64,000 bases of DNA from contig DASYYR010000071.1 in the NCBI GenBank assembly GCA_035933575.1, forward strand, positions 6,994 through 70,993, in the 5' to 3' direction. The stretch's first letter is position 1. Each line of letters starts with the position of its first letter. The notes beneath the pieces are model-generated. The model had not been told where the DNA came from. It saw nothing but the letters and a program-made list of their open reading frames with translations, and searched no databases. This document shows positions 29,416-53,609 of the stretch, in pieces. The translations under genes were made by a program, and so were the position numbers. This stretch comes from Candidatus Acidiferrales bacterium (GTDB lineage: Bacteria > Acidobacteriota > Terriglobia > Acidiferrales > UBA7541).

Positions 29416-29620
29416 TAGGCCGCTCGCCTGCTTGGCCAATGGGCAAGCTGGCAGCCGGCCTACTGCGGGGAGGGCGGTTCTGGTAATGTAAAGTGAGACG
29501 AAGCAGACGGTTCGTCCCTAGGCGCGCAGGCAGCACTGGTGTGGCTAGCGCCTTGCACGAGGCATCTAAGAAAGGCATGGACGGATACAGGAAGGTGGAC
29601 GTGTACGAAGGTAAGGGCAC

Positions 29621-30508: not shown

Positions 30509-30538
30509 CGAGGAGTTTGGCTCGCCGGTACGGCACAT

Positions 30539-31846: not shown

Positions 31847-31876
31847 CGCTGGTGACCGGCTGCTTGCGTCCAGATT

Positions 31877-32608: not shown

Positions 32609-32626
32609 CTTTTGGAGGGCCTATCG

Positions 32627-35043: not shown

Positions 35044-35076
35044 GACTTGGCATCATGCAACCGTTGGAGAGCTGAT

Positions 35077-35808: not shown

Positions 35809-35946
35809 GCGTCACTGAAAGGCGCCGCCGAAAGTCGTTTGGAGTGTAGAACGTGCTCGTCGAGGACACCGAAATGCAACGTGCTCGCCGCTTCCGGCGC
35901 ATTGACGTCCCTGCTCGCATACGAGTTGTGTTTGCGGCGGTCATGG

Positions 35947-37422: not shown

Positions 37423-37423
37423 T

Positions 37424-38209
37424 TTACTTCACTGCGATCGCCAGCAAACTCTGGCCGACAGGCGGCTCCCAAATCTGTTCTAGTCTGAAACTCCACGGAA
37501 TGATCCAACGGTCATACCAACGCACCTGACGAGGCCGGAGCGTCCTCTGCCGAAGGACTCTGCCGGCAAAAAACCAGGAAGCGATACCCAGAAAGTTGAC
37601 GTAACGGGCCTGTTCGACGCGAAAACCCGCGCGTTCAAGTTTCTTCCTCAATATAGGTTTGCTATAGCGACGGTGATGCTCGAAGGCCGCGTCGAGAGAA
37701 CCGTAATTCCATTCGAGAGCTGGCACGAACAGCAACACGCGGCCGCCAGGACGCAACGAGTGCTGTATTTGCAGTAAAAGAGCGTCGTCATCAGAGATGT
37801 GTTCGAGAACATTTACAAGAACGATCGAATCGGCAGACTCCTCCAGCACAGAGGGATCAAACGCGCCGGAGTGAAGCCGAAGCCGAGGATTATCCCCGAA
37901 TTGCTTCTGCAATAAGGGAAACAGATTGGCGCTCGGCTCAAAAAGAACAAGTTTCGAAATGCGATTAATTCTCAACAGCAATTCAGAAAAAGTGCCTGCA
38001 CCGGCCCCGATCTCAATAACTCTCGTGCCGAGATATGGAGCAAAAAAATCCAGAATCCAGCGACAATAATTCCGGGCCTGTGCCATCGCATCCAACTCGG
38101 TTCCGGAATAGACAAACGGATCGTTCACGTTGGCCAGGCTACCGACTACGCATTCCACGAATGCGCAGCTGGTCCCGGAATTCCGCAACGCGAGCGCTTT
38201 CGAAAACAT
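37424..38209 (-). CDS. Class I SAM-dependent methyltransferase
   Basis: Motif I VIEIGAGAGTF and post-I LFEPS. The stop lies 1 nt before the next gene's start. Confidence 0.75.
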   Translation of the reverse strand: MFSKALALRNSGTSCAFVECVVGSLANVNDPFVYSGTELDAMAQARNYCRWILDFFAPYLGTRVIEIGAGAGTFSELLLRINRISKLVLFEPSANLFPLLQKQFGDNPRLRLHSGAFDPSVLEESADSIVLVNVLEHISDDDALLLQIQHSLRPGGRVLLFVPALEWNYGSLDAAFEHHRRYSKPILRKKLERAGFRVEQARYVNFLGIASWFFAGRVLRQRTLRPRQVRWYDRWIIPWSFRLEQIWEPPVGQSLLAIAVK

Positions 38210-38239
38210 TACATTCCCCGCTAGACCCGCCCCAAATTC

Positions 38240-39292
38240 TCACAGAGCCACCGTTCCTCCGGCTTCGGTTTCAGCGCTCGCCGGTACGAACAATGGTACA
38301 GGCTGCCCAGCCTCGACAACAATGCCTTCGCGTTTCGTGCGGAAATATGCGACGACTCTGTCTACGATAGAGTGAAGAGGCGTTGTGGGGCAATCTCCGG
38401 CGATCCTATGAAGCTTTTCGAGAGAAGGAACCCTGCGGAGCATGTCTTCGAAGCCGGGCTCGTATGCTTCGTCGTAGGGGACATAAGTGATTGGAGAAGA
38501 GCTCGCGGTTCTTTGCTTGACCATTTGGGCGAGGGCTTCGATCGTCACTTCCTGGTTGCTACCAATGTTAACGACCTCTCCCACAGCCAGACCGCTATCC
38601 ACCAAGCGAAGGACGGCCCGAATGCAGTCCTGAACATCGCAGAAACACCGAGACTGTTGCCCAGATCCAAAAATAGTGATGGCGGGCCCATCGAGAGCTT
38701 GCGCCACGAAATTCGGCAAGACCATTCCGTACCGGCCTGTTTGCCGGGGGCCTACGGTGTTGAAGAAACGCGCGACGATGACGGGCAATTTTTTTTCTTT
38801 CCAATACGAAAGAGCCAGAAATTCATCGAGCGCTTTCGATGCCGCATAACTCCAGCGGCCTTTCGTCGTGGGGCCGAGGACAAGGTCTGAATCCTCGTGG
38901 AAGGGTATCTTGTCGCTTTTTCCGTACACTTCCGAGGTGGATGCCGTAAAGACAAGCTTCTTTTTCTTGCTGGCGGCTTCGAGAACCATCTGCGTGCCAT
39001 TGACGTTCGTTTCGATGGTGCGGACTGGGCTTTCGACGATTAGCCGTACGCCGACTGCCGCGGCCAGGTGAAAGACAACCTCCGATTCGTCTACTAACTC
39101 CGCCAGAAGATGGCGATTTTGAAGCGAGTCGAACACATAATGAAATCTACTGCTACTTTTCAGGTGGCGGATATTTTCGACACTGCCAGTCGACAAATCG
39201 TCCAGAATAAAAACATCGTCACCGCGCGCAATCAATTGTTCCGCAAGATGCGACCCGATGAATCCAGCTCCGCCTGTGATGAGTGAGCGCAT
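38240..39292 (-). CDS. NAD-dependent sugar epimerase/dehydratase (extended SDR, UXS/ArnA-C-like)
   Basis: ITGGAGFIGSHLAEQL and YAASK (YxxxK). 350 aa. Confidence 0.8.
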   Translation of the reverse strand: MRSLITGGAGFIGSHLAEQLIARGDDVFILDDLSTGSVENIRHLKSSSRFHYVFDSLQNRHLLAELVDESEVVFHLAAAVGVRLIVESPVRTIETNVNGTQMVLEAASKKKKLVFTASTSEVYGKSDKIPFHEDSDLVLGPTTKGRWSYAASKALDEFLALSYWKEKKLPVIVARFFNTVGPRQTGRYGMVLPNFVAQALDGPAITIFGSGQQSRCFCDVQDCIRAVLRLVDSGLAVGEVVNIGSNQEVTIEALAQMVKQRTASSSPITYVPYDEAYEPGFEDMLRRVPSLEKLHRIAGDCPTTPLHSIVDRVVAYFRTKREGIVVEAGQPVPLFVPASAETEAGGTVAL

Positions 39293-39311: not shown

Positions 39312-41582
39312 TTATGAAATTTTGCCGGGCGTCTTTGCCTCTTCTTCTTCCCCATAGGCATAAGAGTAGGGATGATAGCGATACGAGTAGTAGTAATCCG
39401 GAGCGCCAGAATCTACAGCATTCAAAATAACTCCGAGTAACCGACCTTTCACGGCGGAAAGCAAGTCGCGAGTGCGGCCGAACGCTTCCTTCGGCGTCTC
39501 TCCGCTCCAAACGACAAGTAACACGCCGTCGACGACGGCCGAGAGAATCACGGCGTCTGTAGCCGCCATAATGGGTGGAGAGTCCAAAACGATGAACTTG
39601 TAGCGGCGGCGCAGATCTTCGATGCCCTCGGACATTCGGTGCGAGGACAAGAGGTCTGCCGGATTCGGCGGAATTGGTCCGGTCAAGATCGCGTCCATGT
39701 TCGGAATCGCCGGATGCGAAACGACCACGTCGTGCAAGGTCGCAACTCCGGCAAGATACGAACTAAGTCCGATGTCCTGCCCGTGACCATTAGGCAGGTT
39801 CAAGGCTCTCCTGATTCCGGGCTTCCTCAAATCAGCATCGACCAAGAGGGTGCGGTCTCCCAGTTGAGCGAGAGTTACGGCAAGGTTGGCCGCAGACGTT
39901 GTCTTTCCCTCGCGTGGCAGCGCGCTGGTAACCAAAATGACCTGAGGAGGATGGTCGGGCTGCGAAAGCAAGAGCGACGTTCTTAAGGCTCGAAACGCTT
40001 CCGAAACGACCGATTTTGGCTGTTGCAGCGAAATCAACTCGATGCGCGAATCAGGGCCGTCCGCGTTGATTGCTGCTTGGCGAGAAATTCGTACGAGTGA
40101 GCGACTGCCATTCCCGTTCGAGAAAGCTGGTACCACGGCGAGAGACGGCAACCCGGTCAAATGCAGGATATCGTCGGGCGACTTGACGGTATTATCGAGG
40201 TATTCCCGCAGAAATGCGATGCCCACTCCGCCGACGATTCCGACAAGAAATGCCAGCAAAATATTTCGGGATTTTTGCGGACGCGCCGGCGTGGACGGCA
40301 CAAGCGCCGGATCGACGACACGGATGTTGCTGGAACGCAAGCCAGCGGAAATGCCAGCCTCTTTCAGTTTTTGGAGTAATCCATCGTAGAGCTCTTTGTC
40401 CGACTCCGCGTCATGTTTCAAGAGGTTATATTCGACCAATTTCTGGGCCATATTATCAGCCAGGACCTCTTGGCGGTTTAAGTCACGTTCGACCAGAGCC
40501 TCCCGAGCCTGCGTTTCACGATAATCCGTGTCGATCTGGTGAATCATCCCTTGCTTCGTGTCATCCAACTGTTTTTGCAGATCAGCTTCTTCGGCTTTAA
40601 GCCGCTGAACTTTAGGGTAATTTGGCCCGAACTGATTGAGCGCATCGATGTACTGTTCATCCAGATCCGATTTTTTCTTGACAAGATCCTGCACCGCGGA
40701 GTTTCCCAGAACGGCAGTCAATGACTCGGCGTTTGCCGAATGAGCCAACTGGTACGTGGCCTCCTTTTGTGCAAGTTGGGTCTGAATGTCGGTGAGGGTC
40801 TTGCTGAGGTCCGCAAGCTTTTGCGTGGTCGTATTCTGATTTGCATCGACCATCCAGATTTGGTTTTGGCGTTCATAGACGACTTCATCTTGTTCCGACT
40901 TTTCCATCTTGGCGCGCAGGTCTTCTAATTCGGAGCGGAGGAAGTCCGAGGCACGCATTGTCGCGTCATAATGACTCTGCAAATTTGCTTCGATAAAATT
41001 CTGGACATGAGCGTTTACGACTTGAGCCGCGAGCTGTGGATCTTGCGCCGCGAACTGCACTTCAATGAGCCTGCTGTTGGGCACACGAATGACGCTTAGT
41101 GCACCAAGAAACGCGCCCAAAATGGGGGGCTCTTTCTGATTGGGTCCGAGCGTCACCAACTCGCCAGGATTGCCACCGAATTCCGGGTAGCGGGGCAAAT
41201 CCATCGAGCGAATGGTCTTCATCGCAAGAGTTTCGCTCTCCAGGATTTTGATCTGCGTTTCAATGTAATTGTCCAGATCGACGGACATATCAAAGGAATT
41301 ACTGTCCTGGAACGGAAGTGTATTATAACTCTCGCGGTCGACTTCGACTCGTGCCGATGCCACATACACAGGCTTCATCTTAAAGGATGCAATGGTCACG
41401 ATTGTGACGACGGTCAGGAGAAAAGTGAGGATCATCCACTGATGTTTTCGTAGGATGATAAAGTAGTCGCGTAGATTCGGATCACGCGCAACGGGCTCCC
41501 AGTTCACGGGCGGAGTCGGCGACACAACGGACAAGGAATCCCTGCGTCGTTCAATCGGTGCGAGTTTTGGCGCTTCCTCCAT
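39312..41582 (-). CDS. Polysaccharide co-polymerase / tyrosine autokinase (Wzc/GumC-type PCP-2a)
   Basis: N-terminal Wzz-like TM and coiled-coil region. Walker A is LPREGKTTSAANLA. The C-terminal Tyr cluster is DYYYSYRYHPYSYAYG. Confidence 0.9.
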   Translation of the reverse strand: MEEAPKLAPIERRRDSLSVVSPTPPVNWEPVARDPNLRDYFIILRKHQWMILTFLLTVVTIVTIASFKMKPVYVASARVEVDRESYNTLPFQDSNSFDMSVDLDNYIETQIKILESETLAMKTIRSMDLPRYPEFGGNPGELVTLGPNQKEPPILGAFLGALSVIRVPNSRLIEVQFAAQDPQLAAQVVNAHVQNFIEANLQSHYDATMRASDFLRSELEDLRAKMEKSEQDEVVYERQNQIWMVDANQNTTTQKLADLSKTLTDIQTQLAQKEATYQLAHSANAESLTAVLGNSAVQDLVKKKSDLDEQYIDALNQFGPNYPKVQRLKAEEADLQKQLDDTKQGMIHQIDTDYRETQAREALVERDLNRQEVLADNMAQKLVEYNLLKHDAESDKELYDGLLQKLKEAGISAGLRSSNIRVVDPALVPSTPARPQKSRNILLAFLVGIVGGVGIAFLREYLDNTVKSPDDILHLTGLPSLAVVPAFSNGNGSRSLVRISRQAAINADGPDSRIELISLQQPKSVVSEAFRALRTSLLLSQPDHPPQVILVTSALPREGKTTSAANLAVTLAQLGDRTLLVDADLRKPGIRRALNLPNGHGQDIGLSSYLAGVATLHDVVVSHPAIPNMDAILTGPIPPNPADLLSSHRMSEGIEDLRRRYKFIVLDSPPIMAATDAVILSAVVDGVLLVVWSGETPKEAFGRTRDLLSAVKGRLLGVILNAVDSGAPDYYYSYRYHPYSYAYGEEEEAKTPGKIS

Positions 41583-41605
41583 CAGAAAGACCTTTCGTTT
41601 TCTCC

Positions 41606-42661
41606 CTACGGGATTCGATAAATCGCTATGCCAGTGCCAATTCCGAGGGCCGCCGTGCTAGCCCTGCCCAGAATCCGCTTTGCGGAGCTGTCTGGAACGT
41701 ACAAAACGTCGCTTGCGTACAGCCGAACGTCCGGAACCTTGCGGTCCATTATTTTTTTCAATTTGACGTTGATCTGCTTGGTTTCGCCAGTGGCGGGATC
41801 TTTGCGCAATATCACAGCGTTGTTGGCTTTGGCCGTACCTTGGAGACCGTGAGCCAAAGCGATAATCTTCATGGTATTAATTGCTTCGCCCGGGTCGTTC
41901 AGCGTATAGCCTCCAGGCTGCACGACAGCACCCGCTACATAAACGATACCTGCTCGAGGTACCGTGATCACATCTCCGCCGTACACAGGAATATTGAAAG
42001 CAGGATCGCCGGACCGCAACAGGTCAGATACACGAATCTTAATGATCGTAGGCTTGTCATTGGGTGTATCCACAGGCGGATCAGCTTCGCCACACGTAGC
42101 CGCCGGTTCTGTTTCGCGGGTGATGAGGACGGAATCGCCAGCGTCGTCGGCAATGCCGTTCGCTGAAGCGAGCACTTCGAGTAAACTTGTCGGTCGCACT
42201 TCGTGAAAAACAATGGGATGCCCCACGGCGCCGATTACCGAAATTGGATCGCTGCTCTGCTCCTTGACCATGACCGAGACTTGCGGGTGCATTACCAGTC
42301 CATTGACCTGAAGCAGTTTCTCAATTCTTTGACCGAGTTGAAACGGCGTGCACCCGGCTACCGGAATGCGCTCGGGAACTAGGGGCAGTGAGATAAGTCC
42401 GGTCGGGTCTACGCGAACATCACGAGAGAGATCGGGCACATCGAAAACGTCGATATGTACAACATCGCCCGCGCCGATCGGGATATCTCCCATCGGAGGG
42501 CGCGCCGTTTGCGCCAGTTCGTGAATTCTAGCGTTCGCCTGCTGCGAAGTTTGCACCTTATCTTGGCTGAAGCAGGCTTGAGCCCCACACAAAAGGAAAA
42601 GGATCAACCAGATAGAGTACGCCCTTCCGCAGTCCAGTGCCTTCTGGACCGTAGAAGCCAT
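41606..42661 (-). CDS. Outer-membrane polysaccharide export protein (Wza-like: Poly_export + SLBB domains)
   Basis: IGAGDVVHIDVFDVPDLS (Poly_export PES motif region) and repeated SLBB-like segments. ATG 42661 gives a signal-peptide-like N-terminus; the ORF is open to 42715. Confidence 0.85.
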   Translation of the reverse strand: MASTVQKALDCGRAYSIWLILFLLCGAQACFSQDKVQTSQQANARIHELAQTARPPMGDIPIGAGDVVHIDVFDVPDLSRDVRVDPTGLISLPLVPERIPVAGCTPFQLGQRIEKLLQVNGLVMHPQVSVMVKEQSSDPISVIGAVGHPIVFHEVRPTSLLEVLASANGIADDAGDSVLITRETEPAATCGEADPPVDTPNDKPTIIKIRVSDLLRSGDPAFNIPVYGGDVITVPRAGIVYVAGAVVQPGGYTLNDPGEAINTMKIIALAHGLQGTAKANNAVILRKDPATGETKQINVKLKKIMDRKVPDVRLYASDVLYVPDSSAKRILGRASTAALGIGTGIAIYRIP

Positions 42662-42738
42662 GAATCGACAGAGACCCCGGCGAAAACTATGAACTAGGGT
42701 CTGACCCAAAGTCAATGCCCGAAGTCGTGTAGCATCCT

Positions 42739-43974
42739 CTAAGGGTGCAGTGCGGGTTTCTTACGTTCTAGTACTGGAGTAGTGCTCAGCGCGATCATCC
42801 CCAAAAAGACTAGTCCGTTCGCCGGAATGTGGAGGTTGAAGTCCACAAGACTATGCACCGCCATGCCGGCGCATGCGGTTACTCCGGCGGCGTGTATCGC
42901 CTTGGAAAAAGACGTTTGCTCCCGGACGAGGCGCATTCTAGCCTCGCGAAGCCACAGCAGGAGGAAAGCCAGCGCGCAAATCCCGCCCACGATGCCAGTT
43001 TCGGCTAAGGCTTCAACATAGTCGTTGTGAGCGTGATCCACGATTTTTCCGTCATAGTAAGGTTCATAACGGGGATACACAGCAACCAGAGTGCCAAGCC
43101 CGCAACCGATGAGTGGGTGAGCCAAAAATACATGCCACGTTCCTTTGAGCATGGTTACGCGGCGATTCGCGGTGAGTTCGTCGGCGTGGCTACTAAAACG
43201 ATCCAAGATGCGATTGGTTCCCAACCAACCCACTGCAAGCAGGGCCGCCAGCAACACGATTGCAAAAGGCACCATCTGCGACTTTTTGGAACGCGCAACG
43301 TAGACGATCAGCGCAAGAACGCCTACTTCAAAGACGAAGCTCACGATCCCGCCGCGGGAACCCGTCAGCAGCAATGCAGCAATCGGCGCCACGGTCAGTA
43401 TACCGACGAATGGCATTTGCTCCGTGCGTACGCCACGGAACAGGACTAGCGAAAGACCGACGGGCGCGAGAAGCTCCATCAATCCCGCAAAATCATTGCG
43501 ATTTACGTATGGACCAAACGGATTGCCTCCGTTCGTCAACGGCCGATACCAGTACAGCACATAGTGGGACGTAAAATTCTGCGCAATACCGAACACGGCG
43601 ACACCAAACGCAAAACACATTAAAAACCATGTTAAAAATCTCAAGTCGCGCGGATTGTGAAACGCTTGGCCAATTAAGAAAAACAGCAGCGAACAAGCGG
43701 ATATCTTCAACAGTGCAACACTGGTGAGAAATGGATACGCAGTCGCTCCGAACGCCAGCTGCAACATCGCAATTCCGAGGAAAGCTAAAAGAGGCCAATA
43801 GATAGGGCTCCAATGCGTTTCGATTTCGCGATTGTGACAGATCAGAATCGCCCACCATAGAAAAAGAAGGGCCGCACCGGCTTCCAGAATGGATTCCGAC
43901 CAGATCTCAACCGTGCCGAAGGCCAGAACGCTGAACACGATCAGCAGGCAGATTCCTATTCGAAGAAGTCTCAT
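42739..43974 (-). CDS. O-antigen ligase-like (Wzy_C) membrane protein
   Basis: 411 aa and polytopic, with the LLTGSRGGIVSF Wzy_C motif. Confidence 0.75.
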   Translation of the reverse strand: MRLLRIGICLLIVFSVLAFGTVEIWSESILEAGAALLFLWWAILICHNREIETHWSPIYWPLLAFLGIAMLQLAFGATAYPFLTSVALLKISACSLLFFLIGQAFHNPRDLRFLTWFLMCFAFGVAVFGIAQNFTSHYVLYWYRPLTNGGNPFGPYVNRNDFAGLMELLAPVGLSLVLFRGVRTEQMPFVGILTVAPIAALLLTGSRGGIVSFVFEVGVLALIVYVARSKKSQMVPFAIVLLAALLAVGWLGTNRILDRFSSHADELTANRRVTMLKGTWHVFLAHPLIGCGLGTLVAVYPRYEPYYDGKIVDHAHNDYVEALAETGIVGGICALAFLLLWLREARMRLVREQTSFSKAIHAAGVTACAGMAVHSLVDFNLHIPANGLVFLGMIALSTTPVLERKKPALHP

Positions 43975-45275
43975 AACGAAGGGTGGTTAGACTGCGCCGC
44001 CTCTGGGACCATTGTGACGTCATCAATCCAGATCGCGCCGCTAATTTTATTATCGAATAAACGACTGGGAAAACGAACTAGTCGAACTTCAAGAAAATGA
44101 GTGTTCGGGCTGGTTGTGACTTTCGCGCGCAGCGCGGTCCACGGCATCGTTCCCACAATGTTCGGAGTCAACACGTAGACATCGCGCTCGTGCCGCGGAT
44201 CGAAGAGCTCAAAGTGGAGCCCGCTGTCCGTGGAAATAGACTCAGTGCGCACATAGGCCTGAAAGTCGTAAGTAGTATCCGGTCGAGCTGGTTCAATCTG
44301 CTGCACGTGAGCAAAATCCATATTTACGCCGCCGGTGAAACCTACACGCAGAGATTGCGAACCAGAATGATAAACGGAAGAATCGGTGCTGATATACGCT
44401 CCCGGAAGCTGCTGAAAGCGCCAATCGAGGCCGCCATTCGCTATTGGGGTCTCGAATCCTCCATTCCAGACAATGGAATCATCCATGGGCGTCGCAACGG
44501 GCCAGCGTGACGCTTCGAGCGCTTCGTGCCATACGCGTCGCGCGTCATCGGCGCGATCCTCAGCAATCAGTTCATCCAGTAATGGAAATGTCCTTCTGAT
44601 TTCAATGACCTGCCGGCGAGAGAGCGCAACAATTCGCTTCCAGGCTTCGAGCGCGTCTTGTGTTTCATGAATGCCTAGAAAAAAATCCAACGCTGTAAGA
44701 TCGGCGTCTTCATTTGCCGGAAGAACGCTGCCAAGAATCAAATTCACATCTGGATCAAAATTCCAAACACTTCGTATCGCCAATGGTGTCAGGCTCGGAT
44801 CATTCAGGAGGGCTCGATGGATTTCCGAAAGACCTTGTGTCGCCTGGCCCTGACGAAGAAGAAAATTTCCATACTTCCATGCGACGTCCGCGGAAATCGG
44901 ATAATCGCGCTTTGCGTTTTCGTACGCTTCCTGTGCGTGCGAGACATCTCCCGTGGCTTCGTACGCATTTGCCAGCGCAATCCAATGTGACGCGGACAAA
45001 GGATTTATGCGCACTGCGCGGAGGTAATAGGATATCGCGAGGCTCGGGTTGGTTTCATTGAGAGAGAACTGTGTGGACTCACCTAGTCGCGCCCACGCCT
45101 CAGCATTTCCGGGAACCAATTCGGCCGCACGAATTTGCTTAGCAGGTTGTCCTGAGTTTTCCCAATACCAAGCCAAACTCAGCTTGCCCGCTTGATAAAT
45201 CATCGTTGCTGAAACTGCCACGGCCAAGCAAAGGATCGCCCATCGTCTGCCGGAACCTTCGAAATTCGACCCCAC
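43971..45275 (-). CDS. Membrane-anchored TPR-repeat protein with C-terminal CBM_4_9-like carbohydrate-binding domain
   Basis: GTG start and one N-terminal TM. TPR-like repeats (AWARLG.., IALANAYEATGDVSHAQEAYENA). C-terminal NGGFE...W beta-sandwich signature. The stop overlaps the next start (ATGA). Confidence 0.6.
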   Translation of the reverse strand: MGSNFEGSGRRWAILCLAVAVSATMIYQAGKLSLAWYWENSGQPAKQIRAAELVPGNAEAWARLGESTQFSLNETNPSLAISYYLRAVRINPLSASHWIALANAYEATGDVSHAQEAYENAKRDYPISADVAWKYGNFLLRQGQATQGLSEIHRALLNDPSLTPLAIRSVWNFDPDVNLILGSVLPANEDADLTALDFFLGIHETQDALEAWKRIVALSRRQVIEIRRTFPLLDELIAEDRADDARRVWHEALEASRWPVATPMDDSIVWNGGFETPIANGGLDWRFQQLPGAYISTDSSVYHSGSQSLRVGFTGGVNMDFAHVQQIEPARPDTTYDFQAYVRTESISTDSGLHFELFDPRHERDVYVLTPNIVGTMPWTALRAKVTTSPNTHFLEVRLVRFPSRLFDNKISGAIWIDDVTMVPEAAQSNHPSL

Positions 45276-45366: not shown

Positions 45367-46365
45367 TCATCTGAGGTTGCGAGCGAGATCTTCGCAAACT
45401 AAGTCATACAGCCGCCCTAATTGCGCAGTAGAATCGCGGGCGACCAGGTTGCGAATCGGTAGAGACTCCGCGATTTGGCCCAGTACGCGAAATTCTTGAG
45501 CTCGCATCGTCGTGTCAAGAATCGTGTTGCCGTAGGTATTGGCCACCAGACTCATCAGAGCGGCCTGGGGAGGGAGAGCCTCGATAAAAGGCGCGCGTGA
45601 ATCGCCCGAACGATTTGCCAATATATAAATCGCTGCCAGCGGAAGTGCTTCGCGTTCCAATCGCGAACCGCTGCCTTCTAATGGCACGCGAAGCTTATCC
45701 ACCGCAGGCATTTCAGAGACCGGCTTATCCTCCCCGGTAAGCATGTACACCGTCTCCGGCCAGAGATTCAGATAAGGAAAAGCGGGAAGAACACAGAAGG
45801 AACGTCCGCGCTCAACGAGGGAAGCGATATCGTCCGACAGAATGGAATGGCCTCTTCGTGCAAACAATGCAGCAGTGGTCGATTTCCCAGCGCCCGGCAC
45901 ACCGACAAACGCTATCGCTTTGCGTTTGAATGCAACTGCGCTCGCATGCAGGCATATGACTCCGCGGAGACGCAGCACAACCCCGAGCACTGGGCCGAGT
46001 AGAAAATCGGCGACGTCATTCTGCTCCATCGGCTTCTCCATGGGCGCGGCGCAGCGTATGCCGATGTTGGTCAAGCTGGCATTCAGGTAGAACGTGAGAC
46101 CATGGCTATAGTGGATCCTATATCCCCCGTCATTATTTCGTTTCCAGATTTTCAGGGCCGGATGGCCGTTCTCGTCGCAGATCTCGCTCACATACCAAGG
46201 CGTTTCTTCCGCGGCGTCCTGCGCGGACTGTACTTCGTCCGCGTCAAAGTTTACCGAGACATCCTGGGGAGCGTCTGGGGTTGATTCGACTGGATCAAGT
46301 CTGGGAATAGGTTGGTTGGACGCTAACCGAAGGCCGTAAATAACGTAAGAATAGGGCCACTTCAC
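45367..46365 (-). CDS. HPr-kinase-like (HprK C-terminal domain-type) P-loop kinase, lasso-cluster associated
   Basis: The P-loop is FVGVPGAGKSTTAALFARRGHSILSDD. The GTG start overlaps the stop of precursor ORF A2 (ccGTGAag). Confidence 0.7.
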   Translation of the reverse strand: MKWPYSYVIYGLRLASNQPIPRLDPVESTPDAPQDVSVNFDADEVQSAQDAAEETPWYVSEICDENGHPALKIWKRNNDGGYRIHYSHGLTFYLNASLTNIGIRCAAPMEKPMEQNDVADFLLGPVLGVVLRLRGVICLHASAVAFKRKAIAFVGVPGAGKSTTAALFARRGHSILSDDIASLVERGRSFCVLPAFPYLNLWPETVYMLTGEDKPVSEMPAVDKLRVPLEGSGSRLEREALPLAAIYILANRSGDSRAPFIEALPPQAALMSLVANTYGNTILDTTMRAQEFRVLGQIAESLPIRNLVARDSTAQLGRLYDLVCEDLARNLR

Positions 46366-46493
46366 GGAAACCTCGTCTTGTGTTGTCTACTCCTGCCCGC
46401 GTCAGGTGCACCTGTGTGCCCCACCTTTTGCGTCAGGTCCTTGACGGTTCCATGAATAATTAAGACAGGAGACTTGTATGGTTTCTTCGACAC
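46362..46493 (-). CDS. Lasso peptide precursor A2 (43 aa; not in supplied ORF track)
   Basis: The hand translation is (V/M)SKKPYKSPVLIIHGTVKDLTQKVGHTGAPDAGRSRQHKTRFP*. The leader fits YxxPxLx3Gx5Tx exactly. It is a tandem paralogue of A1. Confidence 0.65.
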   Translation of the reverse strand: MSKKPYKSPVLIIHGTVKDLTQKVGHTGAPDAGRSRQHKTRFP

Positions 46494-46600
46494 GCGGCAA
46501 ACAATCAGGTTGGTTGATCGTACTAAAAACTCTGCATCCGGCTTCGTCGTGAAACCGGGCTTCTTAGGAAGATACGACGAATCTAACGGTGATAAAGACT

Positions 46601-46753
46601 CTAAACCCTTGTCTTGATACGGCCCCTCCCACCCCCAACGTCAAACGTGCCGTGCGATCCAACGTTGCGGGTCAGGTCTGCAACCGTACCATGAACGATC
46701 AAGACAGGAGATTTATATGGCTTCTTCGACACATCAGACCTTGCCGGCTGCAT
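46601..46753 (-). CDS. Lasso peptide precursor A1 (50 aa from ATG 46753, or 43 aa from GTG 46732; not in supplied ORF track)
   Basis: The hand translation is MQPARSD(V)SKKPYKSPVLIVHGTVADLTRNVGSHGTFDVGGGRGRIKTRV*. AGGTGG lies 6 nt before the ATG. The leader fits YxxPxLx3Gx5Tx. Confidence 0.65.
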   Translation of the reverse strand: MQPARSDVSKKPYKSPVLIVHGTVADLTRNVGSHGTFDVGGGRGRIKTRV

Positions 46754-46800
46754 GGTCTACCACCTCATGAATTCTATACTAATTCGGTAGCACGACCGCA

Positions 46801-46829
46801 ATCATAAAGTTTTCGGGCGCCTCGAACAA
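46801..46829 (-). promoter_or_regulatory. Candidate sigma70-type promoter for the precursor genes (TTGTTC-17 nt-TATGAT)
   Basis: On the minus strand the -35 TTGTTC is at 46829-46824 and the -10 TATGAT at 46806-46801, about 45 nt upstream of A1. This is a pattern match only. Confidence 0.2.
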
Positions 46830-46895: not shown

Positions 46896-48746
46896 CTAGT
46901 CGCTCAACGTTGGCTTTGCAGAAAGCGACAACAGCCAGAAGTTGAGACAAGCGGGATTTATTTTCAGTTCTGCTTCTTCCTCGTTCATATCTGGCCGCAA
47001 CAACGACGCCGGGCTCCCATTAATATAATGCTTTAACTGGTGGGCGGGTTGCATTTTGACCAGGGGTTCTGTCTCGTCGCACTTCAGAGCTGCAAGTAAG
47101 GGGTGAAAAGGGGATGGAGTCTTCGGCCTCAATCGTATTGCCTCGGGCAGCCTTCCGCGCATCGTTTCGCGCAGCAGGTACTTGCGGAAGAACCATGGCA
47201 TCGAGGGTAAGGCTAGAAGAAAGTTCACCAACCGGAGGTCCAGAAACGGATACCGGACCTCAACCGGTTGATGTGTTGTACCAGGATTTTCCATCCGAAA
47301 CAGGAAATCCCATTGAGGCAAGAAAAGCGAGGCATAGCCTCGAGGATGGCGTGGATGAGTGTTCCAGGGAAGGTTGTCGAGTGGGCTACTCCAACGAGCC
47401 TGGAGATTGAAGCGGGCTGCCAGATCGGGCTGTATCCAGTCAGGAAAGGACGCGCGGGATTCGCGCGGCGAAAACAAGCGTCGCATTCTGCGCAAAGGGC
47501 CTCGAAGACCATCGGGCGCCTGGAACCTGCGCAAAACGTGCTCAGCCAAATCCGCAAGCGCTCGACCGGAACGCCCTTCGCGCCAAAGGTGGCTAAGGTG
47601 CTGTATCATCTCAAACTCCATCAAATTGTCGATACCTTCTCCGGAAAACAAGACGTTCACTTTAGCCGCAATCGCTTTGAATTCGCCCGTCAGAGTGCTC
47701 GGGAAGGGGTACGCAATCGGTTCGGGCCAGTGCATATTGGGATCGTCCCAGCCGTCAAGGATTCCCACGCTGTCGACCACCGAAAAATGAAGCGGAATCT
47801 GAAAAGCAGAAGCCACGGCGCGGGCAGCGCTTGGGTCACTGTCAGATGAAACGTTCTGATGGATCGACGTAAACGCGTGCAGTTCCAACGCTGGGTATTT
47901 TTCTTTATGCAATTCATGAGCCACAGCCGCGACACTTGAGGAATCGAGCCCGCCACTTAGAAGAATTCCGGCTTTGTTCGTCCGCAGCCGGTCTTCGACG
48001 GCGCTCTTAAATAGTTCACCAAAGTGTTCAATGTATTCGCGACGCCGCTGATAGTGAATCGCGCCGTCCGTGGGCGGACGCCAGTACTCTCGCAAATAGA
48101 TCCCGGAATGCGACCATCGAAGAAAGTGCGCGCGCGGCAGGCGGTGGATGTCGGCAAATGAAGTTGAGGCGGGATCATAATTCATCCCGAAAAGAAGGAA
48201 ATCCGCGATCGCTGCATCATTCAACCGATCGGAAACTGGGGGATGAAGGCGGAGGCAATCAAGTGTGTTGCTAAAGATAAAGGAATGGTCAACTTCAGCG
48301 AAGTAAAAAGGCCTGATGCCGAAATGATCGCAAGCGCAAAAAAGCTGGGCGCGCTTTGCGTCCCAAATGGCGAACGCAAAATCCCCGAGGAGGTGATCGA
48401 GACACGCCTCACCCCATGCCTCATAAGCGTGGAGGAGCAATTGAGGATCCGCATCGGAAAGGTTGACTTCCCTGCCGCTCGAACGAAGGGCATCGACGAG
48501 TTCTCTTCGGGCGTCGAGACGCGCATCTGCCACGATCCAGGTGCGCCCGTCGAGGGTTGCCGGCTGGCGTTCAGGCTCGGAATTGTTCGCATGAGAAAGA
48601 AGCGCGTGACCCAGCCCGACAGGACCGTCGGTCCAAATTTCCTGCGCGTCCGGTCCGCGGAAGGACAGCCAGTTCGTCATCCGACGCAACAGATCGGAAT
48701 CGACTGGCCTACCATCCGAGTAGGCTATGCCGACAATCCCACTCAT
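46896..48746 (-). CDS. Lasso peptide isopeptide-bond-forming cyclase (Asn-synthetase-like, C protein)
   Basis: The N-terminus is MSGIVGI, with Ser replacing the glutaminase Cys. The PP-loop is LLSGGLDSSSVAAVA. 616 aa. The start overlaps the B2 stop (ATGA). Confidence 0.85.
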   Translation of the reverse strand: MSGIVGIAYSDGRPVDSDLLRRMTNWLSFRGPDAQEIWTDGPVGLGHALLSHANNSEPERQPATLDGRTWIVADARLDARRELVDALRSSGREVNLSDADPQLLLHAYEAWGEACLDHLLGDFAFAIWDAKRAQLFCACDHFGIRPFYFAEVDHSFIFSNTLDCLRLHPPVSDRLNDAAIADFLLFGMNYDPASTSFADIHRLPRAHFLRWSHSGIYLREYWRPPTDGAIHYQRRREYIEHFGELFKSAVEDRLRTNKAGILLSGGLDSSSVAAVAHELHKEKYPALELHAFTSIHQNVSSDSDPSAARAVASAFQIPLHFSVVDSVGILDGWDDPNMHWPEPIAYPFPSTLTGEFKAIAAKVNVLFSGEGIDNLMEFEMIQHLSHLWREGRSGRALADLAEHVLRRFQAPDGLRGPLRRMRRLFSPRESRASFPDWIQPDLAARFNLQARWSSPLDNLPWNTHPRHPRGYASLFLPQWDFLFRMENPGTTHQPVEVRYPFLDLRLVNFLLALPSMPWFFRKYLLRETMRGRLPEAIRLRPKTPSPFHPLLAALKCDETEPLVKMQPAHQLKHYINGSPASLLRPDMNEEEAELKINPACLNFWLLSLSAKPTLSD

Positions 48747-49213
48747 TTTTGTGCAACCATCTTGCCGGTGACAGGACCCGCGAAAGGCGCATATCGAGTC
48801 TGTACGTCGTCCGAGTCATTGATCGCGCGCCCGGCGACCTCAATCCACGCGTGAGCTTCTAACTGATTGCCAATCTTCCTTGCGCCAATTCGCAATTGCG
48901 CCGGAATTCCCCGCCGTCGAAGTAGCCAGCACAACGCAATCGAACGGGAAAGGCAGTTTCCGCGAACGACACCGCGGCGGGAGGCAGCATCCAGCATGCG
49001 GCTGGCAGACTGAGACTCGGTGAAGATCCGGGTGGCATCACGCTGATTCGTCAAGACAGCGCTGCCGTGCCATTTTTCCGAGGCCTGCTGAATGCGTCGA
49101 AACGTGGATACGCGCAACCAGATCACCACAACTGGAAGGAATAGCAATCCCAGAAAAAAATCTCGGCGCTCCCGGCCGGAGAGATTACAAAAGCGCACCC
49201 AAGTAGCATTCAT
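48743..49213 (-). CDS. Lasso peptide leader peptidase B2 (transglutaminase-core family)
   Basis: RGNCLSRSIALCWLLRRRGIPAQLRIGAR...LEAHAWIEVAGRAINDSDD gives the Cys/His/Asp arrangement of lasso B2 proteins. 156 aa. Confidence 0.85.
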   Translation of the reverse strand: MNATWVRFCNLSGRERRDFFLGLLFLPVVVIWLRVSTFRRIQQASEKWHGSAVLTNQRDATRIFTESQSASRMLDAASRRGVVRGNCLSRSIALCWLLRRRGIPAQLRIGARKIGNQLEAHAWIEVAGRAINDSDDVQTRYAPFAGPVTGKMVAQK

Positions 49214-49330: not shown

Positions 49331-49645
49331 TCAGGGAGAATCACCAGTCAACTCCACTAGGCCCTCACGAAGCAATTTTTCAAGCAGGGCGCGTAGATCG
49401 CTTTCGGCTTGCTGCGGAGTGACATCGTATTCCTCGACGATCACGTCGCGAATCGCACTCATGTTCGTGGGTTGCTGGAGCAACTGCCAAATCCGCGCTC
49501 CGACGGGATCCAATCCATAATAGACACTGTTCTTCATGTTGAGGATGGCCGCCTCATCGCCCAGTTCGCACGAAACCTGCTGCTTCGTTGCCACGAGAAT
49601 CGCATCGTTGGTGAGGTCGCTGTTCATCGAAACCTTCCCGAACAT
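49331..49645 (-). CDS. PqqD-family RiPP recognition element (lasso B1)
   Basis: AILNMKNSVYYGLDPVGARIWQLLQQPTNMSAIRDVIVEEYDV...LLEKLLREGLVEL is a canonical PqqD-like sequence. About 100 aa. Confidence 0.85.
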   Translation of the reverse strand: MFGKVSMNSDLTNDAILVATKQQVSCELGDEAAILNMKNSVYYGLDPVGARIWQLLQQPTNMSAIRDVIVEEYDVTPQQAESDLRALLEKLLREGLVELTGDSP

Positions 49646-49808: not shown

Positions 49809-50618
49809 GTGGCCGCGGACGCGATCATCGTTCGAAATCTCGAGAAATATTTCCCGCCTTCCTATTCGGGGTGGCGGGCCCTGATGCAGCCAGTAGCACG
49901 TCTTACGCTGCGAGCGCTGGCAGGAGTTTCGCTCTCTGTCGAGCGGGGAGAAGCCGTCGCGCTGATTGGCGAAAATGGCGCTGGCAAATCCACGCTGCTT
50001 AGAGTGCTGGCCACTTTAATTGTGCCGTCGCGCGGGCAGGCCGAGATTTTCGGTTGCGATGTAGTAAGAGATGGAGCGGGCGCGCGCAGGCAACTTGGCT
50101 ATTACACCAGCGGCGACGAGGGATTTTATGGACGCTTGACTGGACGCGAGAATCTGCGTCTGTTCGCGACAATGAATAATTTAACGCGTCGTGAAGCGTC
50201 GCGGAGAATTGACGAGCTGGCAGAATTGCTGGGCATGAACGAGATATTGGACCGGCAGTCGCGCACCTATTCGACAGGCATGTTGCAGCGATTGGGCCTC
50301 GCGCGGTCTCTTCTACACGCGCCGGCAGTGCTACTTCTCGACGAGCCTACGCGCAGCCTTGATCCCTTGGCGGCGGCCGAGTTTCGCCGTTTCCTCAAAA
50401 ACGACATCGTGAGCCGGCTTGGGACGACGCTGCTCTTTGCCTCTCACACGCTCGGCGAAGTTGAAGAGATGGCAAGTCGAGTTGTATTACTTGCCGAAGG
50501 GCGCATCCTCGCATTCGATACTCCGCGCAATCTGTGTGGACGGACAGGCGCGGCCCATTTACAGGGAGCTCTCGAACGCCTGGCGGGACCGTTTTCCTCG
50601 ACGGAACGTAACGGATGA
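49809..50618 (+). CDS. ABC transporter ATP-binding protein
   Basis: GTG start. Walker A GENGAGKST, signature YSTGMLQRL and Walker B LLLDEP. Confidence 0.85.
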   Translation: MAADAIIVRNLEKYFPPSYSGWRALMQPVARLTLRALAGVSLSVERGEAVALIGENGAGKSTLLRVLATLIVPSRGQAEIFGCDVVRDGAGARRQLGYYTSGDEGFYGRLTGRENLRLFATMNNLTRREASRRIDELAELLGMNEILDRQSRTYSTGMLQRLGLARSLLHAPAVLLLDEPTRSLDPLAAAEFRRFLKNDIVSRLGTTLLFASHTLGEVEEMASRVVLLAEGRILAFDTPRNLCGRTGAAHLQGALERLAGPFSSTERNG

Positions 50619-51436
50619 ACATGCGCCTTACGATTGAAAAGTTGTGGGCCTTTTTTCGCCGTGACCTTGCGATTGCACGCGGCTATCGCAGCGCCTTTAT
50701 TTTGGAAGCTTGCGAGGCGTTGTTTGGTGTCGCCACGTTTTACTACCTTTCGCGATTCGTCGAGAGCCCTCAACTCTCGAGCGCCCTTCCGCAAGGAGGC
50801 AGCTATTTCGCATTTGCGTTGATCGGCTTTGCCTTCTTCGATTATCTGGGCGTGGCCTTCAATGCATTTGACTCAAGCCTCGAGGAGGCGCGTCAGAATC
50901 GCACGCTCGAAGCATTGCTCGTGACACAAACTTCGCTTCCCATCACGCTGCTGGGTTCCGTAATCTATCCGTTCGTTCTGACGTCCTTACGCACTGTGGT
51001 GTATCTCGGATGGGGAGTTCTCTTATTCGGGTTTTCGGCCCGCTCAGCAAACTGGCTTGGCGCGATACTGATCCTGCTGGCTTCAATCCTGGCGTTTGCC
51101 GGCCTGGGAATTTTCTCGACCAGCTACACGCTGCTATTCAAACGCGGCAATCCGGCAAAATGGATTCTTCTGGGGCTTTCTGGATTTCTCGGCGGGACGA
51201 TGTATCCGGTTTCGATTTTGCCGAAATACTTGCAGGATGTCGCGCGATTGATTCCGATCACCTATTCGCTGGAGGGTATGCGCGCCGCGCTGCTCGGCGG
51301 AGCACCGCTTCGCCTGTTGTGGCCTTCGATCGTTGCTTTGATGGTCTTTGCGGCAATTTTATTACCGCTGTCCTTTTTCACGTTTGCGTGGGCGCTGCGC
51401 CGGACAAAAATCACCGGAACACTCACGCATATCTAG
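50615..51436 (+). CDS. ABC-2 type transporter permease
   Basis: The start overlaps the ATPase stop (ATGA). 6 hydrophobic segments. 273 aa. Confidence 0.8.
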   Translation: MNMRLTIEKLWAFFRRDLAIARGYRSAFILEACEALFGVATFYYLSRFVESPQLSSALPQGGSYFAFALIGFAFFDYLGVAFNAFDSSLEEARQNRTLEALLVTQTSLPITLLGSVIYPFVLTSLRTVVYLGWGVLLFGFSARSANWLGAILILLASILAFAGLGIFSTSYTLLFKRGNPAKWILLGLSGFLGGTMYPVSILPKYLQDVARLIPITYSLEGMRAALLGGAPLRLLWPSIVALMVFAAILLPLSFFTFAWALRRTKITGTLTHI

Positions 51437-51472: not shown

Positions 51473-52321
51473 TCAGTCGAAGAAACGATATCGCAAAATG
51501 GCATAGAGCGTCACCACGCCGTCGCGCCAAGTGATTTTCTTGCCTTCCTCGTACGAGCGGCCCGCGTAAGAAATCGGGACTTCGTAAATTCGCCATCGTG
51601 CCTTGGCCACGCGCGCCGTTACTTCCGGCTCGAAGCCGAAGCGATTCGAGCGCAGGCGCATGCCTCGAATGACCTCCTTGCGAAAAACCTTGTAGCAGGT
51701 CTCCATGTCGGAAAGGGTTAAATTGGTGACAATGTCTGAAAGCAGCGTCAAGAACTTGTTGCCGACGTAATGCCAAAAAAAGTGGACGCGCTGCGGTCCG
51801 CCCAGGAACCTGGACCCGTAAACTACGTCAGCTCGTCCGTCGAGGATGGGCTCGATCAGTTTGGCGTATTCACGCGGGTCATATTCGAGATCAGCATCCT
51901 GAACGAGAAGAATATCGCCACTCGCCTCGGCGAAGCCTCGCCGCAGTGCGGCGCCTTTCCCTTGGTTGTGTTCCTGAAATAGAAAATGGATGTTGCTCAA
52001 GGGCAAACGCGAGCGTCCCCCGAGAATTTCCGCCTCCGTTTCGCCGGCTTGCTGAAGGCGGTGCATCTCGGTCAGCCATTCACGAGTCCCGTCGGTGGAC
52101 CCATCATCAACGACCACAATTTCATGCGCGACGCCAACTGCCTGTACGCGCCGCAGAATCTCCTCGATGAACGCCCGCTCGTTATAGGCAGCAATGATCA
52201 CGGAAACGGTCACGGGAACTTTGCTGTCCGCATTTGCGTCGAATGCCGCCTGGGCCGTGGCAGGCCGGCGCTCCTGTTCAGATGTGCGAGAAGGAACCAT
52301 GGGTACTTGCTCACTCCGCAT
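51473..52321 (-). CDS. Glycosyltransferase family 2, polyprenyl-phosphate sugar synthase-like (DPM1/ArnC-type soluble form)
   Basis: VSVIIAAYNERAFIEEIL...VVVDDGSTDGT and VQDADLEYDP motifs. The C-terminus is KITWRDGVVTLYAILRYRF. Confidence 0.75.
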   Translation of the reverse strand: MRSEQVPMVPSRTSEQERRPATAQAAFDANADSKVPVTVSVIIAAYNERAFIEEILRRVQAVGVAHEIVVVDDGSTDGTREWLTEMHRLQQAGETEAEILGGRSRLPLSNIHFLFQEHNQGKGAALRRGFAEASGDILLVQDADLEYDPREYAKLIEPILDGRADVVYGSRFLGGPQRVHFFWHYVGNKFLTLLSDIVTNLTLSDMETCYKVFRKEVIRGMRLRSNRFGFEPEVTARVAKARWRIYEVPISYAGRSYEEGKKITWRDGVVTLYAILRYRFFD

Positions 52322-52378
52322 GAAGAGATTAACACGAGGGGTTCCACGTCACATATCGGAAGCGAATTTGCCGGTATT

Positions 52379-52434
52379 GGGTCAGTTTGAATTTTGACTC
52401 TTTGTGGCACGATCAAGAAAATTCAAACTGACCC
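52379..52434. repeat. Perfect 17-bp inverted repeat (GGGTCAGTTTGAATTTT ... AAAATTCAAACTGACCC) with 22-nt spacer in a divergent intergenic region
   Basis: Read directly. The left arm 52379-52395 is the exact reverse complement of the right arm 52418-52434. Confidence 0.9.
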
Positions 52435-52490
52435 ACCACCGATTTGCCTTCTCGATTGCGCGCCGGGGCCGGAAAAAGTAAAGTTGAACG

Positions 52491-53609
52491 GTGAAGACTC
52501 TGATGAAAGTGCCCTATTTCGATTTAAAAGCTCAGTATAACGGGTTGCGGGAAGAAATTCTCGAAGCGCTCGACCGCGTTTGCCGCAACGCATCGTTCAG
52601 CCTGGGCGACGAAGTAGCCGCGTTCGAAAAGGAATTCGCGGCGTACTGTGAAGCGAAACATTGTATCGCGCTAAATTCAGGGACCAGCGCGCTGCATTTG
52701 GCGCTGCTGGCCGCGGGGATCGGGCCAGGCGACGAAGTCATCACCAGCCCGAATACGTTCATTGCCACAGCTGAAGCAATCGCTTACACAAACGCAAAGA
52801 CCGTGTTTGTGGACATTGACCCGCTGAATTCGAACATAGATCCACAACTGGTGGAGCGTGCCATCACGGCGCGCACCAAGGCGATACTGCCGATTCACCT
52901 CTACGGCCGACCGGCCAACATGGACGTGCTCGAAGGGATTGCGCACTCGCATAAAGTGGCACTCATCGAAGATGCTTGCCAGGCCCACGGCGCGCGATTT
53001 CGCGGGCGGCGCGTCGGCGCTTTAGGCAACTCGGGCGCGTTCAGTTTCTACCCGTCGAAGAATCTGGGAGCGTATGGCGAGGCGGGGGCGTTGGTCACTA
53101 ACGATGAGCGCATCGCCGACTATTGCCGCGCGGCGCGAAGCCATGGAGAAGCGCACCGGTATTTCCACGATTTCATCGGCTACAACTACCGCATGGAAGG
53201 TTTTCAAGGTGCAGTGCTGCGCGTGAAGTTGCGCCACCTGGACGATTGGTCGGCGAGTCGAAAGGTGCTTGCGCAACGCTACCGCGAGCAACTTGGCACC
53301 GCCCGCCTCGACATGCCACAAGACGACCCGCGCGACGAATGCGCGTATCACTTGTTTGTGGTTTACGTCGATAACCGTGATTCCGTGAAGCAGCAACTTG
53401 AAGAACGCGGCATAGGGACAGCTGTGCATTACCCGCGGCCCTTGCATTTGCAAAAAGCCCTGGCGAATCTGGGATACCGCGCCGGCAATTTCCCTCATGC
53501 TGAACGTGCGTGCGAACGCGCCCTCGCATTGCCTTTCTTTCCGGAGATGACCGAGGAGCAGGTGGATTATGTCGCGGATTCGATAATGGAAATCACTGGC
53601 AAACGATAA
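52491..53609 (+). CDS. DegT/DnrJ/EryC1/StrS-family sugar aminotransferase (ArnB/WecE-like)
   Basis: VPYFDLKAQY N-terminus and FSFYPSKNLGAYGEAG PLP-Lys motif. Start is GTG 52491 or ATG 52503. Confidence 0.85.
   Translation: MKTLMKVPYFDLKAQYNGLREEILEALDRVCRNASFSLGDEVAAFEKEFAAYCEAKHCIALNSGTSALHLALLAAGIGPGDEVITSPNTFIATAEAIAYTNAKTVFVDIDPLNSNIDPQLVERAITARTKAILPIHLYGRPANMDVLEGIAHSHKVALIEDACQAHGARFRGRRVGALGNSGAFSFYPSKNLGAYGEAGALVTNDERIADYCRAARSHGEAHRYFHDFIGYNYRMEGFQGAVLRVKLRHLDDWSASRKVLAQRYREQLGTARLDMPQDDPRDECAYHLFVVYVDNRDSVKQQLEERGIGTAVHYPRPLHLQKALANLGYRAGNFPHAERACERALALPFFPEMTEEQVDYVADSIMEITGKR

Follow-up and report, generated by a model that had tools for sequence, protein, structure and literature searches.

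Two tandem precursor genes of a predicted kinase-carrying class II lasso peptide pathway in an Acidobacteriota bacterium

The described systems that come closest to the two genes considered here, A1 and A2, are a few lasso peptide clusters, each of which shares some features with them and departs from them in others. A1 and A2 stand in tandem on the minus strand of a 64,000-nucleotide (nt) stretch of DNA from a Candidatus Acidiferrales bacterium (contig DASYYR010000071.1), hereafter the window, to which all coordinates refer. With a probability of about 0.7, we read them as the substrate genes of a class II lasso pathway in an uncultured Acidobacteriota bacterium whose closest relatives are Candidatus Acidiferrales metagenome-assembled genomes (MAGs).

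Metanodin, reported in 2025 from a Steroidobacterales-like source in a soil metagenome (PMC12670498), resembles the predicted products in having Asn at position 1, Thr at position -2 of the leader and a nine-residue ring closed on Asp. Its Asn1 was established by tandem mass spectrometry, its fragmentation is consistent with the nine-residue ring, and its nearest homologue is predicted to use Gln1. Its precursor gene, too, was missed by automated callers. It differs from the window cluster in its proteobacterial ABC organisation, its isopeptidase, the lack of a kinase and an unrelated core, and its product was shown by mass spectrometry, whereas the window is known from genes alone. BsfA and its kinase BsfK, from Bradymonas sediminis (PMC10368454), share with the window the split B1 and B2 proteins, an HPr-kinase-like kinase with the spacing H-15-G-3-G-2-GKS-16-DD and, in the leader, YxxPxL at -17 to -12. 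BsfA, however, has Ile at -2, Gly1-Asp8 and a phosphorylated Ser3, whereas A1 and A2 have Thr at -2, Gly at position 3 and, as their sole conserved hydroxyl residue, a Thr close to the C-terminus. The paeninodin type (PadeA, ThcoA, SyanA and pseudomycoidin) likewise combines split B1 and B2 with an HprK-like kinase that acts on the precursor, but its precursors end in Ser, which is the phosphosite, and many of its clusters carry a nucleotidyltransferase. The last residue is Val in A1 and Pro in A2, and no nucleotidyltransferase family was matched among the scanned neighbour genes of the window cluster.

Two further comparisons concern residue 1 and gene order. The palassoptides A1 and A2 with their cyclase PalC (PMC13632552), together with fusilassin, cellulassin and halolassin (10.1101/2020.11.25.399105), resemble the window in a non-canonical residue 1 (Phe, Glu, Trp or Tyr), in two divergent precursors per enzyme set and in a cyclase that is tolerant at position 1. 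They differ in being actinobacterial, in their eight- or nine-residue rings on Glu or Asp, in lacking a kinase and in having other leaders and cores. The metagenomic cluster BGC 44.1, assigned to the Acidobacteriia (PMC9064862), has the same gene order as the window and genes of near-identical size (permease 822 bp, ATPase 810 bp, PqqD 303 bp, B2 471 bp, C 1863 bp and A 150 bp). Judged by this order and these sizes, not by sequences, BGC 44.1 very probably belongs to the same family as the window cluster.

The window contains a complete lasso cluster, in which B1, B2, C, A1, A2 and a kinase gene, K, follow one another on the minus strand and an ABC-2 exporter is divergent to them; the gene identities rest on Pfam, NCBIfam and motif matches. 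B1 (49331-49645, minus strand) encodes a PqqD-type recognition element for ribosomally synthesised and post-translationally modified peptides (RRE) of 104 amino acids that matches Pfam PF05402 at E = 4e-18; against the NCBIfam model lasso_PqqD_Bac it scores 64.8 bits, under the cut-off of 80. B2 (48743-49213, minus strand) encodes a transglutaminase-like leader peptidase of 156 amino acids, which scores 86.3 bits against NF033537 lasso_biosyn_B2 (cut-off 33), matches Transglut_core3 at E = 3e-23 and has the motifs CLSRS (Cys87) and HAWI (His121). C (46896-48746, minus strand) encodes an asparagine-synthetase-like lasso cyclase of 616 amino acids with Asn_synthase (PF00733, E = 5.5e-31) and GATase_7 domains and an SGGLDS PP-loop at residue 264. 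It begins with MSG, so that there is no catalytic Cys at the N-terminus, and its score of 353 bits against lass_lactam_cya (NF033535) lies under that model's strict cut-off of 525. The exporter consists of an ATPase (49809-50618, plus strand) and a permease (50615-51436, plus strand), matched by ABC_tran and ABC2_membrane; this pair probably serves in export or immunity. Gene order was compared in 87 related loci, for most of which a homologue of the kinase served as the anchor. A cyclase C homologue is found in 84 of them, a B1 homologue stands 5' of B2 and C in unchanged order in 54, and the ATPase and permease occupy the same divergent position in 36-43. The features by which a class II split-B lasso system is recognised in sequence were found in the window: the leader motif, the RRE, a cysteine protease with its Cys and His, a PP-loop cyclase and an acidic residue at position 7 to 9 of the core. 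An older rule of thumb, today no longer a defining feature, expects the core to begin with Gly, Ala, Ser or Cys; it does not hold under the cleavage that we favour, which places Asn at position 1 in A1 and Lys in A2.

In the pathway that we propose, a conserved promoter in the spacer between C and A1 would drive A1, A2 and K. B1, as the RRE, would bind the YxxPxL part of the leader, and the B2 cysteine protease would cut after Thr at -2 and Arg or Gln at -1. Cyclase C would activate the side chain of Asp9 and couple it to the alpha-amine of the first core residue, Asn in A1 and Lys in A2, closing a nine-residue ring around a cationic 12-residue tail. The HPr-kinase-like enzyme would phosphorylate the precursor, most likely at the conserved Thr of a [K/R]-Thr-x(1-5) motif at the C-terminus; by analogy with characterised lasso kinases, this would precede leader removal and be assisted by B1. 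The products would leave the cell through the divergent ABC-2 transporter.

The A1 open reading frame (ORF; 46601-46753, minus strand) translates to MQPARSDVSKKPYKSPVLIVHGTVADLTRNVGSHGTFDVGGGRGRIKTRV*, 50 amino acids counted from an ATG, and the A2 ORF (46362-46493, minus strand) to VSKKPYKSPVLIIHGTVKDLTQKVGHTGAPDAGRSRQHKTRFP*, 43 amino acids counted from a GTG. A preliminary description of this DNA had proposed two 43-residue precursors, which is right for A2; for A1, the start is most likely the ATG rather than the GTG, because a Shine-Dalgarno sequence, GAGGTGG (46760-46766, minus strand), lies seven bases upstream of that ATG and all eight A1 homologues found begin M[QHR][LP]... at the same position. 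A GGAGG-like box is kept at this place in the family alignment. The rest of the geometry in that description is borne out: measured from the shared GTG (46732 and 46493), each ORF is 132 nt long, with 239 nt from one start to the other; 19 of the 22 leader positions are the same in A1 and A2; and both match the leader motif YxxPxLx3Gx5Tx exactly, with an Asp nine residues past the Thr-x. In A1, the leader spans 46667-46753 and the predicted core 46604-46666 (NVGSHGTFDVGGGRGRIKTRV), with the codons of Asp9 at 46642-46640 and of the conserved Thr19 at 46612-46610. In A2, the leader spans 46428-46493 and the predicted core 46365-46427 (KVGHTGAPDAGRSRQHKTRFP), with Asp9 at 46403-46401 and the conserved Thr18 at 46376-46374.

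A1 and A2 are coding genes under purifying selection, as indicated by the leader model, the conservation of homologues, the intactness of A2 in relatives and the pattern of substitution. The NCBIfam lasso leader model NF033521 scores A1 at 22.1 bits and A2 at 19.4 bits (cut-off 19). Close homologues of A1, at 67-93% identity, occur in metagenome contigs that repeat the whole cluster, and in the related loci L001, L002 and L004-L009 an intact A2, with its leader motif, Asp9 and K-T-R tail, lies inside the uncalled gap between A1 and the kinase gene. The ORFs are therefore both conserved at homologous loci, which the preliminary description had named as a check on its proposal. Nei-Gojobori counts between the window and four relatives gave ratios of non-synonymous to synonymous change (pN/pS) of 0.05-0.2 for A2, with 6-9 synonymous against 1-3 non-synonymous differences, and of 0.2-1.0 for A1, where the non-synonymous changes are concentrated in the core. 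Purifying selection is thus stronger on A2 than on A1, whose core is diversifying; residue +1, for example, alternates between Asn and Arg among close relatives. A 1-nt indel that distinguishes the window from L001 lies 22 nt before the A2 GTG and shifts the upstream frame, and coding in A2 therefore begins at or near the GTG.

These data also bear on whether A2 is a gene at all. It could be a decaying, untranslated duplicate with a GTG start and a short N-terminal leader, A1 alone being functional: no recognisable Shine-Dalgarno sequence could be read upstream of its GTG, it was not found in the more distant locus L003, and gene callers skipped it in every metagenome contig. A decaying copy would, however, hardly be the one under the stronger purifying selection, nor would it keep its ORF, leader motif, Asp9 and tail through L001, L002 and L004-L009, and second precursor copies recur in L011, L012, L013 and L021. 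We consider this explanation improbable. The second copies (L011, L012, L013 and A2 of the window) repeatedly lack the ATG of the first copy and have as their apparent start a GTG just before SKKP; in L012, for example, the second copy reads MQRPRADVSKKP and the first AQRPRAAVSKKP. Three metagenome proteins (P0088, P0010 and P0073) contain two complete leader-core units within one reading frame, which in P0088 read ...KKPYHTPKLTVYGNLPTITRTLGTQEGIDGG...KKPYHTPKLTVYGNLPTITGTLGTQGASDGG...; either a fusion of tandem precursors or read-through from one gene into the next may account for them.

A1 and A2 are typical members of a large, uncharacterised, kinase-carrying family of Acidobacteriota. When a profile of ten precursor sequences was searched against 1.84 billion proteins, 372 cluster representatives were recovered at E <= 1e-3, mostly from Candidatus Acidiferrales MAGs, and the leader pattern was present in 153 of 157 family proteins (P0001-P0157). 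Kinase homologues number 2,947 and occur in more than 200 genome contigs; the named ones are all "hypothetical protein" entries of Candidatus Acidiferrales, Acidoferrales or Terriglobales MAGs. When GTDB representative genomes were scanned with the kinase alignment, 80 loci were returned, nearly all in Acidobacteriota MAGs, with a best kinase identity of 92% (L008). Among the 87 related loci, the gene order of ABC exporter and divergent B1-B2-C-A-K is widely conserved, and in nearly all of them the kinase gene is immediately preceded, on the same strand, by one precursor ORF or by two. Searches of the literature brought up nothing specific to this precursor family, to Acidiferrales lasso peptides or to the TIGRFAM "HprK-related kinase A" system. 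Kinship with the Acidobacteriaceae leaders that have Ile or Val at -2 (PMC10368454) was considered and rejected, since those precursors, with their ...YQADE tails, are an unrelated family.

A sister group of precursors (P0043, P0102, P0104, P0122, P0134, P0139, P0153 and P0156; loci L088-L091) has the same leader, its first acidic residue at +8 and tails with G-S/T-rich ends (e.g. ...DGLTGSRLL) that lack the [K/R]-Thr motif. In the two contexts examined there was no kinase gene; in one of them, PqqD and B2 genes lie about 5.6 kb away, past two large SdrD_B/CarboxypepD_reg proteins. P0102 (L091), a relative without a kinase, sits among Wzi, Poly_export and Wzz genes, beside an NTP_transf_5 gene.

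The family allows the cleavage site to be judged from 239 unique precursors, numbered here from the first residue after the Thr-x of the leader. The first acidic residue at or beyond position 7 falls at +9 in 216 of them (90%), at +8 in 13 and at +10 in six. Position +1 is hypervariable (A 53, K 43, T 34, N 33, S 28, R 16, M 9, Q 7, G 7, H 6), with the canonical A, S or G in 88 precursors; position +2 is mainly Val or Ile, and Gly stands at +3 in 203 (85%). The preliminary description had placed cleavage after the Arg or Gln that follows Thr, giving Asn1 and Lys1, Asp9, a nine-residue ring and 21-residue cores, and the comparison across the family favours this placement. We therefore regard a cut after Thr(-2)-x(-1) as probable, with predicted nine-residue rings of Asn1-Asp9 in A1 and Lys1-Asp9 in A2.

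The competing possibility within the same lasso pathway is that the core starts two residues later, at the conserved Gly (GSHGTFD... in A1, GHTGAPD... in A2), which would give a Gly1-Asp7 ring of seven residues and 19-residue cores and move Thr to -4. The prevalence of Gly at +3 fits such a start, and NF033521 aligns to A1 and A2 only through a two-residue insertion ahead of this Gly, as a model built on Gly starts would predict. Seven-residue rings do exist, the xanthomonins being an example, and the spacing of Gly to Asp7 is visible in the huascopeptin precursor. The spacing of the acidic residue argues the other way, because it persists where the Gly does not: of the 36 members that lack Gly at +3, 27 retain Asp at +9, while in five of the 36 position +3 is Pro. 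SKPGNKGHD, NKRGSRGND, THTSGAHPD and KNLTGGKAD are examples of the 27, all from bona fide B1-B2-C-A-K loci, and the members with Pro disfavour a start at +3 since Pro cannot be residue 1 (PMC13632552). A start at Gly3 would, moreover, leave the group with its acid at +8 with a ring of six residues, and it would put the hypervariable residue (K, N, R, T, M, Q or H) at -2, the position read by the B2 protease. Nor would it explain why Thr stays exactly 15 residues after Tyr in the leaders of the family, as it does in canonical leaders. The start at Gly is thus unlikely, and cleavage after Thr-x remains our preferred placement.

How unusual residue 1 would then be has changed with recent work. The preliminary description had held that either placement of the cut departs from the rules for lasso peptides, a view that is outdated: besides the Asn1 of metanodin, Phe1 and Glu1 occur in the palassoptides (2026), Trp1 in fusilassin and cellulassin and Tyr1 in halolassin (10.1101/2020.11.25.399105). 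The cyclase PalC takes every residue but Pro at position 1, E1P being the sole variant that it did not make (PMC13632552), and a large survey, as cited in that paper, is said to lack only Pro at this position. The claimed rule-breaking of Asn1 and Lys1 is accordingly no longer surprising to specialists. Within the family both residues are common at +1 (Lys in 43 and Asn in 33 of the 239 precursors), and Lys is the commonest residue 1 in kinase-linked precursors (21 of 83). The literature examined contains no natural lasso peptide that has been characterised with Lys1, and Lys1 would be a first if demonstrated.

The kinase gene K (45367-46365, minus strand) encodes an HPr-kinase-like peptide kinase of 332 amino acids, and its GTG start overlaps the stop codon of A2 (GTGA). 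All 13 aligned members of the kinase family match Pfam Hpr_kinase_C, and the family profile finds the solved HPr kinase 1jb1 at E = 6e-6 over the catalytic region. H140, G155, G158, G160, K161, S162, D178 and D179 are invariant in 13 diverse homologues, with the spacing of the catalytic motif reported for BsfK (PMC10368454); K has the catalytic H / GxxGxGKS / DD motif by which the kinase of a phosphorylated lasso system is recognised.

The likely target of this kinase was sought in the tails of 83 unique kinase-linked precursors. A Thr (81 of 83) or Ser (2 of 83) stands one to five residues from the C-terminal end, mostly third-last, and is preceded by Lys in 41 and by Arg in 33 (74 of 83 in total). 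At all other core positions Ser and Thr together reach at most 33%, and only 6% of the precursors end in Ser or Thr. P0153 and P0102, which have no [K/R]-Thr tail, have no kinase gene in view at their loci. The preliminary description had noted that A1 and A2 share K-T-R near the C-terminus, which is the case; the family-wide [K/R]-Thr motif and the kinase gene that overlaps A2 were not part of it. Since [K/R]-Thr is conserved near the C-terminus of kinase-linked precursors, Thr19 of A1 and Thr18 of A2 are the predicted phosphoacceptors, a proposal that we hold at roughly even odds. The tails lack the C-terminal Ser of the paeninodin type (A1 ends ...KTRV and A2 ...KTRFP), and the arrangement of BsfA is likewise absent, position 3 being Gly in 62 of the 83 precursors and position -2 being Thr.

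The clusters of the family are also found in company that raises a question about the kind of product. In the window, TPR/CBM, Wzy_C-like, Poly_export and Wzz/GNVR tyrosine-kinase-like genes (39312-45275, minus strand) adjoin the lasso cluster. Such polysaccharide genes adjoin it in 34-49 of the 87 related loci (L008-L087), where they follow it on the same strand or precede it in inverted orientation (L030, L033, L038, L049, L054, L063, L080 and L082). This linkage may be functional or only inherited. One could suppose that the products are phosphorylated linear or branched-cyclic peptides rather than threaded lassos, with a role tied to the adjacent polysaccharide export genes. HprK-like kinases together with RREs do make linear polyphosphorylated peptides (PMC13381572), and BGC 44.1, a cluster of the same architecture, yielded no lasso peptide heterologously (PMC9064862). 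The linear-peptide clusters of PMC13381572, however, are defined by the absence of a cyclase, whereas B2 and cyclase C are conserved beside the precursors in most loci of the present family and the acceptor Asp is fixed at a distance compatible with a ring. A product of this other kind is very improbable.

Several points weigh against the class II lasso pathway as we propose it. The conserved Gly at +3 and the insertion needed to fit the leader model have been set out above, as has the want of a Shine-Dalgarno sequence before A2. Characterised lasso kinases target the C-terminal Ser or Ser3 (PMC10368454), not an internal Thr. Neither E. coli nor Burkholderia yielded a product from BGC 44.1 (PMC9064862); the cluster was cloned as A, B1, B2, C, D1 and D2, with no kinase gene listed, and the kinase-less construct is a possible reason for the failure. 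Finally, the family is known from genes alone, and where its leaders are cut, how large the rings are and whether they are threaded, where phosphate is added, how the products leave the cell and what they do are all inferred.

A more far-reaching proposal would make the family a functionally distinct lasso branch in three respects at once. Its cyclase would take almost any residue 1, most commonly Lys, whose free epsilon-amine would lie by the ring junction; its kinase would phosphorylate a Thr within the chain, two to four residues before the C-terminus; and the peptide would work with the adjacent Wzy/Wza/Wzc-type polysaccharide export locus, for instance by signalling for or regulating exopolysaccharide production, not as an antibiotic. 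Such cooperation would account for the continued linkage of the lasso and export gene sets, despite rearrangements, in many Acidobacteriota genomes. Taken jointly, these three respects make a speculative claim that we think distinctly unlikely.

The spacer upstream of A1 contains a promoter-like element that is conserved across the family. It reads TTGCGG (46801-46796), a 17-nt spacer and TATAGA (46778-46773), on the minus strand (46773-46801 in all), and its consensus is AACtTTTGGTTGCAGTc-N12-GGTATAAC, followed by the GGAGG box and the ATG. In 69 of 88 sequences (the 87 loci and the window) it stands at a fixed distance from the first precursor gene, and it is kept even where kinase identity is only 40-45%; for non-coding DNA in loci so divergent, such conservation is unusually high. 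This suggests that the precursor and kinase genes may have a promoter of their own. The element lies 23 nt downstream of the promoter that the preliminary description had put forward, TTGTTC-17-TATGAT. The latter is present in the sequence (46829-46824 and 46806-46801), but it agrees with the promoter consensus at only 8 of 12 positions, was not called by a promoter scan and is kept only in the closest relatives. A reading of AAC...CGT-like bases in the conserved element as a promoter for an extracytoplasmic function (ECF) sigma factor was dropped, the spacing by inspection being about 13-14 nt, not 16-17. An 8-bp stem between A1 and A2 that had also been proposed, TTCGTCGT (46581-46574) with ACGACGAA (46550-46543), can be read in the sequence with a loop of 23 nt, but it is absent from the minimum-energy fold, and the folding energy is not significant (z = -1.4). 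L001, L004 and L006 have a different 5' arm, and their 3' arm has not changed to match. Neither this stem nor the earlier promoter proposal is supported.

A large island of genes for polysaccharide biosynthesis and export flanks the cluster on both sides (28351-39292 and 51473-53609). It includes genes for an FkbM-type methyltransferase, a Wzm/Wzt-like ABC exporter, two DesI-like sugar aminotransferases, an NAD-dependent epimerase/dehydratase, a PMT_2-like glycosyltransferase, a family-2 glycosyltransferase and a DegT aminotransferase. Beyond it, a 908-residue ORF (53666-56392, minus strand) has as its sole Pfam match a sub-threshold one to Apolipoprotein-type helical repeats (27.8 bits; cut-off 90).

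Acidobacteriota, which abound in soil, are rarely cultured, and to our knowledge almost no natural products have been characterised from them. In the window, a lasso family that occurs widely in the phylum and has so far given no product is represented cleanly and completely. What goes beyond the literature that was found is the hypervariability of residue 1 across a family, a C-proximal Thr as a candidate new phosphosite, a conserved promoter-like element and a recurrent linkage with polysaccharide export. The predictions can be tested: nine-residue rings of the form X1-Asp9, with Asn1 in A1 and Lys1 in A2, a phosphorylated Thr near the C-terminus and a promoter dedicated to the precursors. 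If an internal Thr is indeed phosphorylated, it would be a new site of tailoring, and the family as a whole is a natural test bed for the tolerance of lasso cyclases at position 1.

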